A DNA stretch of 1,550 nt from assembly GCF_003334355.1 (NCBI RefSeq), contig NZ_QOWP01000086.1. The stretch is one strand, 5' to 3'. The notes below the pieces were generated by a model, which saw nothing but the letters and a program-made list of their open reading frames with translations, made no database searches and was not told the origin of the DNA. Positions 1 to 1,550 of this stretch are shown here, in pieces. The position numbers and the translations under genes are program-made. The first letter of the stretch is position 1. The number at the start of each line of letters is the position of its first letter. The DNA is from Escherichia coli. GTDB taxonomy: Bacteria > Pseudomonadota > Gammaproteobacteria > Enterobacterales > Enterobacteriaceae.

Positions 1-1550
1 GATGGCCACGGGATTGGTGCGCCGACTGGGTAGCTTTCTGGTGGAAGATTTTTCGAGGTATAAACTTCTGCCCAGTCTTCCTCAAAACCATAGCCATCTC
101 TTGAGGAACGGTAGAACAGACCTCCATTTCTGTAATGTGCCTTCATCTGCAAGGTCCGGCAACTTCCGACTCCGGTATAGAAGTTAACCAGAATATAGGT
201 GTCGCCAGAGCGGGTGACATTGTAAGCGCCTGATTCGGCATTCCAGGGAACACCACCATCCGCATCGGCATATGTATCCGTTGCCCTTCTGGCAAAAGCA
301 GCCACATGCGCGGCGGTTAAAGTGATATCAGTAGAACCATCAAATGGAACACCGGATATTTTTCTTGCAGTCTGAAGTTTTGTAGCAGTTGCAGCATTAC
401 CAGTGGTGTTCTGATTACCCGTAGTGTTTACACCTGGAAGGTTAATATTTGCAGAACCGTCGAAAACAACTCCACCGATAGATCTTGCCGTCTGCAATTT
501 CGTGGCTGTACTTGCATTACCATTCAATGAACCAGTTAATCCACCTGTAACAGACAACGGACCTGAAACTGTTCCTCCGGTTGTTGGCAGTGCTCCAATA
601 TCTGATGGTGTAGGTTTCTGATGTGAGCTATACATCGTATAAACAACACCATAGGTAACGCTGGAAGGCTTACTCGCTGAATATGTTGGCGAGGTATAAA
701 CAGAAACTGACGCATTTGCAGTACAATCCCAATGGATATTTACACTCGTCGCATAATTGCCAATCTCAACGTAAATATCATATGTATCGCCGGATGTGTT
801 GATCCAGGCGAAATTCGTTAATCCGACGGCTGTACGCTTCCACAAAGCCCCGGTAATTCCTTTGGGGTTTCCATTGCCTGCTCGTAGAACCAGTTCTGAA
901 ATGCCTGCCTGATGTGGGGAACCGACGTTGTAACCAGCGCCACCAATCAATGCGATGTAAACGATGGAACTCGCTTGTGGCATGGTAACCGTAGCCAGTT
1001 TGAACCACCCAGCCCCGCCAGAGAAAGACATCGTTACTGAATTTAAAGTACCAATATCTTTCGGCGTTAATGTTATATCCGCAGTCAGTGCTTTTCCGTT
1101 AACTTTTCGGTTAGATGGCACCCTGCTATTCGCATTGTCATTGGCTGCTTTAACTGCTTTTGGCGTTGCGGCCAGCGATTCACTGGTGCTATCAACAGCA
1201 CTGCTAAGTTTCACAACACCTTTAGTTGTAAGGCTTGCGTCTTCCATCGCAACTGCACCGGCAATCTCTTCAGCACGATCAGCAGCAGCTTCCGCACGGG
1301 TCGCAGCGGATTCAGCAGTAGTTTTGCTCTGAGATGCTGCCGTCGCACTGCCTGCCGCCTCTGTTGCTTTCGTGGATGCCGTCGTGGCGCTGCCCCGCGC
1401 TGCTGACGCCTGTCTGGTCGCCTCATCTTTTGAAGCAGACGCCGATGATGCCGATGACGCCGCCGAACTGGCTGACGATGCGGCTGCCGTTTTTGAGGAT
1501 TCTGCACGGGTTTCCGACGCTTTCGCGTTCGTTTCGGATGTCTTCGCTGC
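1..1550 (-). CDS. Phage/prophage side tail fibre protein (lambdoid Stf-like), internal fragment; both ends lie outside the window
   Basis: Minus-strand frame with codons at + 1550..1548 down to + 5..3 is open for all 516 codons. This frame is absent from the ORF track, consistent with no in-window stop. Translation begins AAKTSETNAKASETRAESSKTAAASSASSAASSASSASASKDEATRQASAARGSATTASTKATEAAGSATAASQSKTTAESAATRAEAAADRAEEIAGAVAMEDASLTTKGVVKLSSAVDSTSESLAATPKAVKAANDNANSRVPSNRKVNGKALTADITLTPKDIG and ends ...SKNLPPESYPVGAPIPWP. The Ala/Ser-rich rod, the SESLAATPKAVKAA motif, the KLQTAR..FDGS..I.L repeats and the GAPIPWP motif are all characteristic of enterobacterial side tail fibre proteins as I recall them. 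Family assignment is from memory, not a search. Confidence 0.9.
3..23 (-). other. GAPIPWP junction motif at the window edge
   Basis: The last seven complete codons of the in-window translation read G A P I P W P (minus-strand GGC GCA CCA ATC CCG TGG CCA). As I recall it, this is the first part of the GAPIPWPSD motif shared by lambda Stf-type and other tail fibre proteins; the expected following residues lie beyond + position 1. Confidence 0.7.
318..398 (-). repeat. Tail-fibre repeat unit 2 (protein-level repeat NAATATKLQTARKISGVPFDGSTDITL)
   Basis: Residues 385-411 of the translation; same TATKLQTAR-x-I-x-GV-x-FDGS-x-x-I-x-L pattern as unit 1, 40 residues downstream of it. Confidence 0.8.
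438..518 (-). repeat. Tail-fibre repeat unit 1 (protein-level repeat NASTATKLQTARSIGGVVFDGSANINL)
   Basis: Residues 345-371 of the translation; matches unit 2 at 20 of 27 positions. Confidence 0.8.
531..1031 (-). other. Unassigned central domain of the fibre (about 165 aa), possibly a beta-rich module
   Basis: Residues 174-340: MSFSGGAGWFKLATVTMPQASSIVYIALIGGAGYNVGSPHQAGISELVLRAGNGNPKGITGALWKRTAVGLTNFAWINTSGDTYDIYVEIGNYATSVNIHWDCTANASVSVYTSPTYSASKPSSVTYGVVYTMYSSHQKPTPSDIGALPTTGGTVSGPLSVTGGLTGS. Composition is rich in G, T, S, V, Y and W with alternating hydrophobic residues; I cannot assign a named motif from sequence alone. Confidence 0.4.
1143..1172 (-). other. Conserved tail-fibre motif LAATPKAVKAA
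   Basis: Residues 126-136 of the translation (SESLAATPKAVKAAND). As I recall it, the (S/T)ETLAATPKAVK motif recurs in lambdoid and related enterobacterial tail fibre proteins. Confidence 0.7.
1248..1550 (-). other. Ala/Ser/Thr-rich low-complexity segment of the fibre (putative N-proximal shaft region)
   Basis: Residues 1-101 of the in-window translation are dominated by A, S, T with scattered K/E/R (e.g. KTAAASSASSAASSASSASAS, TRAEAAADRAEEIAGA). The DNA here is visibly more GC-rich than the rest of the window, about 65% in one hand-counted 60-nt block versus about 38-45% in blocks further 5' on the + strand. Confidence 0.75.
1440..1457 (-). repeat. Short tandem 9-nt repeat (2 units) encoding SSA-SSA within the Ala/Ser-rich segment
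   Basis: Minus-strand codons TCA TCG GCA / TCA TCG GCG; + strand reads cgccgatgatgccgatga at 1440..1457. Confidence 0.6.

Follow-up and report, generated by a model that had tools for sequence, protein, structure and literature searches.

The 1,550-nucleotide stretch of Escherichia coli DNA analysed here (contig NZ_QOWP01000086.1; hereafter "the window") very probably lies in the middle of the side tail fibre gene (stf) of a lambdoid prophage of E. coli, and a cassette containing a knob, repeats and a domain resembling that of Mu S' has been swapped into this gene. This reading draws on domain composition, gene order, purifying selection and the junctions of the cassette, all of which are observed directly. 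The gene is already annotated, and it is an ordinary mosaic phage fibre whose biology, classic tail-fibre mosaicism, is known. Descriptions of such horizontal exchange of tail-fibre modules go back decades.

A single minus-strand frame (positions 3-1550, read from position 1550) is open from edge to edge of the window, as the initial annotation had claimed. Six-frame translation yields 516 codons without a stop in this frame, and 14, 26, 20, 23 and 22 stops in the remaining five. Base composition predicts 25.4 stops per 516 codons (probability of none, 4.8e-12), and in 20,000 shuffles of the window the best of the six frames always contained at least seven. The ratio of nonsynonymous to synonymous substitution rates (dN/dS; Nei-Gojobori), calculated with five relatives of 74-99.7% nucleotide identity, is 0.04-0.22 across all modules in the minus-strand frame, compared with 0.83-5.6 in the two shifted frames. 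Because this ratio is low in the minus-strand frame, the fibre protein is under purifying selection across lineages. Homology detected with Pfam, PHROG, PDB and BLAST is confined to the same frame; no stop interrupts it, and no better homology lies in another frame or strand, the two outcomes that had been named in advance as telling against the claim.

The translation also carries the tail-fibre hallmarks that were noticed initially, namely an ATPKAVK motif at amino acid (aa) 128, GAPIPWP at aa 510-516 and a first 100 aa rich in Ala, Ser and Thr. Suggested searches for tail-fibre families bear this out: PHROG tail-fibre families match the 516-aa translation with E-values down to 6e-246, Pfam Phage_fiber_2 matches at 1.1e-18, and the solved Mu fibres 5yvq and 8ju3 are recovered as well. 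An NCBIfam scan of the 516-aa fragment matched no family. In three near-identical genomes an annotated coding sequence (CDS) spans the entire window, in agreement with the earlier statement that it holds no intergenic DNA. The features recognised are as follows, with aa numbers referring to the 516-aa translation.

3-1550, minus strand: internal segment of stf, with neither start nor stop codon (open frame, 99.7% nucleotide identity to the gene for WP_210833249, dN/dS).
1251-1550, minus strand: Ala/Ser/Thr-rich rod, the distal end of the predicted proximal coiled-coil shaft (aa 1-100; composition and alignment with the lambda rod).
1113-1235, minus strand: Phage_fiber_2 motif (aa 106-146, with ATPKAVK at aa 128; Pfam PF03406, E 1.1e-18).
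36-1121, minus strand: 362-aa module cassette (aa 144-505) that replaces residues 395-528 of lambda Stf.
591-1058, minus strand: portable beta-sandwich "knob" (aa ~165-320), with neither a Pfam family nor a solved homologue.
315-533, minus strand: two ~40-aa shaft repeats, NA[ST]TATKLQTAR...FDGS (aa 340-412; TATKLQTAR at aa 348 and 388, FDGS at aa 363 and 403).
36-302, minus strand: Mu S'-like globular domain (aa 417-505; phmmer i-Evalue 3.1e-20).
3-23, minus strand: GAPIPWP, the first seven residues of a Phage Tail Collar domain (aa 510-516), cut by the edge of the window.

Megablast searches were conducted against 5426 complete E. coli genomes. The best matches to the full length of the window (99.0-99.7% identity, 100% coverage) are all chromosomal lambdoid stf genes. 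The start and stop codons, the tip, tfa and the neighbouring genes are read from these relatives, not from the window's own flanks. The best match, in E. coli EC2341 (positions 8001-9550 of locus L001), is 99.7% identical and differs by five nucleotides and one amino acid (R15S). The EC2341 CDS (L001 6933-10160; 3228 nucleotides, 1075 aa) encodes WP_210833249, annotated as "prophage tail fiber N-terminal domain-containing protein", and the window corresponds to its residues 357-872. Its start codon lies 1068 nucleotides beyond position 1550 and its stop codon 610 nucleotides beyond position 1, so the expectation that the gene extends well beyond 1.55 kb holds in the relatives. A gene annotated as "tail fiber assembly protein" (tfa) overlaps the stf stop codon by one base in EC2341, and its product is 94% identical to lambda Tfa; the Tfa-like chaperone gene predicted beyond position 1 is thus present in the relatives. 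The gene order gpJ-lom-stf-tfa is found in two further hosts (loci L007 and L008), with an intact stf of 3228 nucleotides in L008, and the order in EC2341 is L-K-I-lom remnant-stf-tfa.

To compare the protein with its lambda counterpart, the 774-aa Ur-lambda Stf frame was rebuilt from lambda orf-401 and orf-314. Outside the window, the full-length relative begins with the Pfam phage_tail_N domain (PF08400, residues 1-134, E 1.5e-71), and its residues 1-352 are 80% identical to lambda Stf (orf-401). The rod follows, and Ala, Ser and Thr make up 66-74% of window aa 1-100. Up to Phage_fiber_2, residues 216-499 of the EC2341 protein align with lambda Stf 111-394 at 51% identity, and the rod is ~105 aa longer than that of lambda. 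Residues 102-393 of Ur-lambda Stf constitute the proximal coiled coil (PMC12617516). The rod is built of degenerate short repeats, which appear as degenerate direct repeats in L001 and as Tandem Repeats Finder periods of 9 and 21 in the window. No hypervariable repeat tract is evident in the window, where tandem repeats are limited to short, low-copy arrays in the rod. At the end of the rod, window aa 98-149, which encompass the Phage_fiber_2 motif, match Mu S residues 105-156 (5yvq/8ju3).

The Phage_fiber_2 match is reported for the 516-aa fragment and is unreported for the full 1075-aa protein. Its loss in the full-length scan likely reflects the handling of composition and bias by HMMER along the Ala/Ser rod. 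Since detection differs between fragment and full length, the domains assigned to such fibres can vary with the boundaries of the sequence scanned.

At the other end, the Pfam Collar domain (PF07484, E 1.6e-11) covers residues 866-913 of the full-length relative, and residue 866 is window aa 510, so that the domain begins exactly at GAPIPWP. Weak HxH "Phage_fiber" Pfam repeats occur farther along the tip. Residues 862-1075 are 68% identical to lambda Stf 529-774, and both proteins share the C-terminus NIAFNYIVRLA, although the tip differs from that of lambda by indels (213 versus 246 aligned residues). The receptor-binding C-terminus therefore begins at the window edge and continues beyond position 1, as anticipated. 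The Stf-type assignment made initially is likewise upheld by the phage_tail_N domain, the identity to lambda Stf over residues 1-352 and the order J-lom-stf-tfa, with the refinement that the window resembles lambda only at its two ends.

About 70% of the window (aa 144-505) is a block of modules that has no lambda Stf counterpart and is common to T-even gp37, Mu S' and the fibres of phage-plasmids. Homology to lambda Stf stops at lambda residue 394 (window aa 143) by BLASTP against orf-401, and it restarts at lambda residue 529 (window aa 506, residue 862 of the EC2341 protein); no similarity to lambda Stf was found between residues 500 and 861 of the latter. The 362-aa cassette, composed of the knob, the two shaft repeats and the Mu S'-like domain, stands in for the 134-aa hinge and distal coiled coil of lambda, whose limits are given in PMC12617516. 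Functional lambda-P2, -K1F, -K5 and -KL106 Stf chimeras have been fused at R393 and S528 (PMC11338833), and both junctions of the cassette adjoin these engineered fusion points. The lambda-type hinge and distal coiled coil (lambda residues 394-525) are lacking here. However, because this region is exchangeable in the functional chimeras, it is not essential for membership in the Stf family.

The knob falls in PHROG families of unknown function, and a PDB sequence search with its profile gave no match. It is represented in 370 clusters at E <=1e-3. In other fibres (~230-2700 aa) its position is arbitrary, and several copies are sometimes present. Internal parts of T-even gp37, which correspond to window aa 169-315, and of the fibres of ~88-kb phages share 41-49% identity with the knob. 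An AlphaFold2 model based on a 39-sequence alignment is all-beta (predicted local distance difference test score 91, predicted template modelling score 0.82) and resembles galectins, carbohydrate-binding modules and tailspike sandwiches. Its structural relatives include Pantoea stewartii WceF and phage tailspikes (PDB 6tgf, 6c72, 6e1r), although sequence identity to the knob is only 10-13% and there is no beta-helix depolymerase domain in the present fibre. In WceF a jelly-roll sandwich follows the triple beta-helix (PMC7949094), and we infer that this sandwich may be the part matched by the knob model.

The model leaves some room for the knob to be a lectin-like glycan-binding module, which would provide a second binding site on the shaft, for O-antigen or capsule, besides a porin-binding tip. 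We consider this doubtful.

The remaining modules of the cassette also have relatives in other phages. Stretches ~60% identical to its shaft repeats occur in T-even gp37 and in Acinetobacter and Shewanella phage fibres, with aa 325-371 forming the part that matches gp37 at this level. The adjacent region, aa 417-510, is ~50% identical to residues 323-415 of 8ju3_A ("Tail fiber protein S, Tail fiber protein S'"), and the aa 417-505 domain has no match in the Mu S chain 5yvq.

These modules differ greatly in distribution. Among the 5426 E. coli genomes, the rod is matched in 3694 (68%), the Mu S'-like domain in 1848 (1814 at a coverage of at least 80%) and the knob in 587 (~11%), and the whole window is covered to at least 80% in only 397. 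Megablast alignments with phi458 and Cyrano stop at query nucleotides 1189-1232, and those with 9g and Ro157c2YLVW start at query nucleotides 1087-1136, in both cases within the shaft repeats. As judged from these sequence alignments, recombination joints between modules are located in the shaft repeats. The ~107-kb phages CMS-2020a and Cyrano possess a fibre of 1341 aa that contains the window's modules. This fibre additionally carries a second, diverged knob (75% nucleotide identity) or Mu S'-like domain (74%) at positions 6394-6783 of the CMS-2020a locus (L005) and 6038-6367 of the Cyrano locus (L006).

Three known systems are instructive for comparison. The gene shares with lambda Stf the J-lom-stf-tfa locus, the phage_tail_N domain, an Ala/Ser rod that ends in Phage_fiber_2, a Collar and HxH C-terminus, and Tfa, the flanking parts again being those of the relatives. 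Lambda Stf differs in its length (774 aa, versus 1075 aa here), in its shorter rod, in residues 395-528, which are replaced here, and in the indels of the tip. The Mu fibre proteins S (gp49, 5yvq) and S' (gp52, 8ju3) are homologous in the Phage_fiber_2 region and the S'-like globular domain, but they are ~500 aa long, sit on the baseplate of a contractile tail and have a distal part of their own, whereas here the S'-like domain lies inside the protein and a lambda-type tip comes after it. The resemblance to T4-like gp37 extends to the knob, the shaft repeat and C-terminal HxH repeats of the same type. Length and module order differ, as do the virions (myovirus versus siphovirus), and gp37 is joined to gp36 in T4, compared with the tail collar here. 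The full gp37 architecture with its gp36 joint is thus absent, since only internal modules match and the N-terminus is of lambda type. The distal part of lambda Stf has itself been described as structurally homologous to gp37 (PMC12617516).

By analogy with lambda, Mu and T4, the protein would form a homotrimeric side fibre. Its N-terminal domain would clamp to the tail at the junction of tube and tip, the rod would serve as a coiled-coil proximal shaft, and Tfa would aid folding of the tip. The architecture of lambda Stf and its OmpC-dependent fast adsorption have been characterized (PMC12617516), and the lambda-like tip is correspondingly expected to bind an outer-membrane receptor reversibly and to speed adsorption before the central fibre J engages. 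The cassette is assembled from modules that circulate among unrelated phages, with joints at short conserved linker motifs. Its most likely effect is to make the distal shaft longer and to add knobs to it, and the knob could have a second, glycan-binding role.

Several points weigh against the reading of the window as the middle of a working lambdoid stf gene. The flanks are known only from relatives that are 99.0-99.7% identical. Trimer formation, attachment to the tail, the receptor and what the cassette does are all extrapolated from lambda, Mu and T4. The receptor need not be OmpC and cannot be named, because the tip differs from that of lambda by indels. In addition, this copy of stf may never enter a virion, because the EC2341 prophage is degraded and the L007 copy of the gene is cut by an insertion. 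In EC2341 only partial genes are left for the terminase large subunit, a frameshifted hypothetical protein, tail assembly protein I and lom (L001 2969-6868), and in L007 an IS3-family element (5458-6620) interrupts the same stf gene 394 nucleotides past the window end, splitting the Collar/HxH tip remnant and tfa from the rest. It is therefore possible, though in our view rather unlikely, that the frame is intact and the gene is nonetheless a relic in a defective prophage that makes no functional fibre and acts as a reservoir of modules for incoming phages. The truncated genes and a frameshifted recombinase in EC2341 fit this proposal, as does the truncated L007 stf, and PMC3945230 concerns temperate phages that gain DNA from defective prophages via recombination. 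However, stf and tfa are intact in both L001 and L008, the low dN/dS reflects purifying selection on the fibre protein across lineages, and a gpJ gene that is not flagged as a pseudogene lies upstream in L007 and L008, although the compared stretch ends within it. Moreover, the proposal concerns the state of one copy, not the identity of the gene. A different origin altogether would be the tail fibre gene of a phage of phage-plasmid size (~107 kb; CMS-2020a/Cyrano type, "P1 S homologue", 1341 aa), with another anchor and distal end. CMS-2020a covers 95% of the window at 95.5% identity and Cyrano 77% at 96%, in Cyrano a J gene precedes the fibre gene, which carries the annotation P1 S homologue, plasmids account for ~5% of the match places in E. 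coli, and the rod is matched at 98.7% identity by ~110-kb plasmids. This origin is nevertheless very unlikely, for the best full-length matches are all chromosomal lambdoid stf genes, and the phage-plasmid matches are less identical and leave the last 80-360 nucleotides of the window, on the Collar side, uncovered.

Two further proposals would add a regulatory or switching function to the stf segment. The plus strand of the rod region (1277-1495) matches the Rfam family isrG (RF01390; E 0.001-0.005) antisense to the rod, with a weak terminator-like hairpin and T-run (plus strand 1469-1486) at the 3' end of the match, which would be consistent with a small RNA that controls the fibre gene as a cis-antisense regulator. 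In Salmonella, IsrG is encoded opposite a tail fibre gene, and the expression of the two is inversely related (PMC2330248). The antisense position of IsrG accounts for the sub-threshold match; most likely the similarity reflects shared tail-fibre coding DNA. The match scores 20.7 bits where the gathering threshold is 100, the alignment has deletions of 21 and 12 model positions as well as many broken or non-canonical pairs, IsrG overlaps the 5' end of its target gene and the region here lies mid-gene, and the plus strand of the window has no promoter-like site and two terminator-like sites, with 1.8 expected. We consequently regard an IsrG-like regulator as highly improbable, and membership in isrG was rejected on the basis of the score and the broken consensus structure. 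The only other Rfam match in the window is to Mahella-1 (E 0.64), and promoter- and terminator-like sites in the window are at chance levels (1 and 2, versus 1.5 and 1.8 expected).

The fibres of Mu are switched by Gin inversion of the G segment. A 26-bp crossover site of such a Gin/Pin/Cin-type invertible segment, which switches the distal fibre in Mu, P1 and e14, could in principle lie in the window, given that a recombinase or invertase remnant occurs downstream of tfa in L001 and phi458 and that aa 417-505 are homologous to the Mu S' part of 8ju3 and have no match in the Mu S chain. We give this almost no credence. The crossover core AAACCNNGGTTT is absent from the window (allowing up to two mismatches) and from the 17.5-kb L001 locus (up to one mismatch), no long inverted repeats join stf with the region downstream of tfa, no inverted alternative stf' or tfa' copies are present, and the recombinase in L001 is a 231-nucleotide frameshifted remnant. 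An invertible fibre segment resembling Mu G, P1 C or e14 P was accordingly rejected, there being no AAACCNNGGTTT core, no matching inverted repeats and no active invertase.

Some observations concern the surroundings and annotation of the stf gene. Downstream of tfa in EC2341 (L001 10775-13414), the recombinase remnant is found together with a TIR-domain anti-phage reverse transcriptase (WP_005025120) and a DinI-like gene. This region, beside prfC, looks like defence or moron cargo at the prophage end. Several deposited phage genomes, among them PhiR30_1 (L004 1933-5326) and phi458 (L003 4203-6421), have an stf region whose annotation is split into two or three separate CDSs ("side tail fiber" or "tail protein") with gaps between them, which suggests either frameshifts like that of lambda PaPa or fragmented gene calls. 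A plus-strand open reading frame (ORF) at 964-1332 of the window, antisense to the rod, can be compared with lambda orf206b and phi458 Orf45, two antisense ORFs annotated as "hypothetical proteins". As a candidate antisense gene this 122-aa ORF was rejected, as it has no significant similarity to lambda orf206b (E 3.5). The ORF seems to arise from the GCN-rich codons of the rod and to invite spurious gene calls.

The importance of these findings beyond correct annotation is small. The whole window is best treated as coding sequence belonging to a single known gene, and it offers neither regulatory nor intergenic features to interpret. A modest by-product is a residue-level map of the modules of a long Stf variant, and a useful one is a confident model of the structure of a fibre knob that is widespread but unannotated. 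If the knob does bind glycans, its presence in ~11% of E. coli genomes, compared with 68% for the rod, would reflect host-range tuning. The coincidence of the natural joints with R393 and S528, which engineers have used to retarget lambda particles, supports these positions as general splice points.

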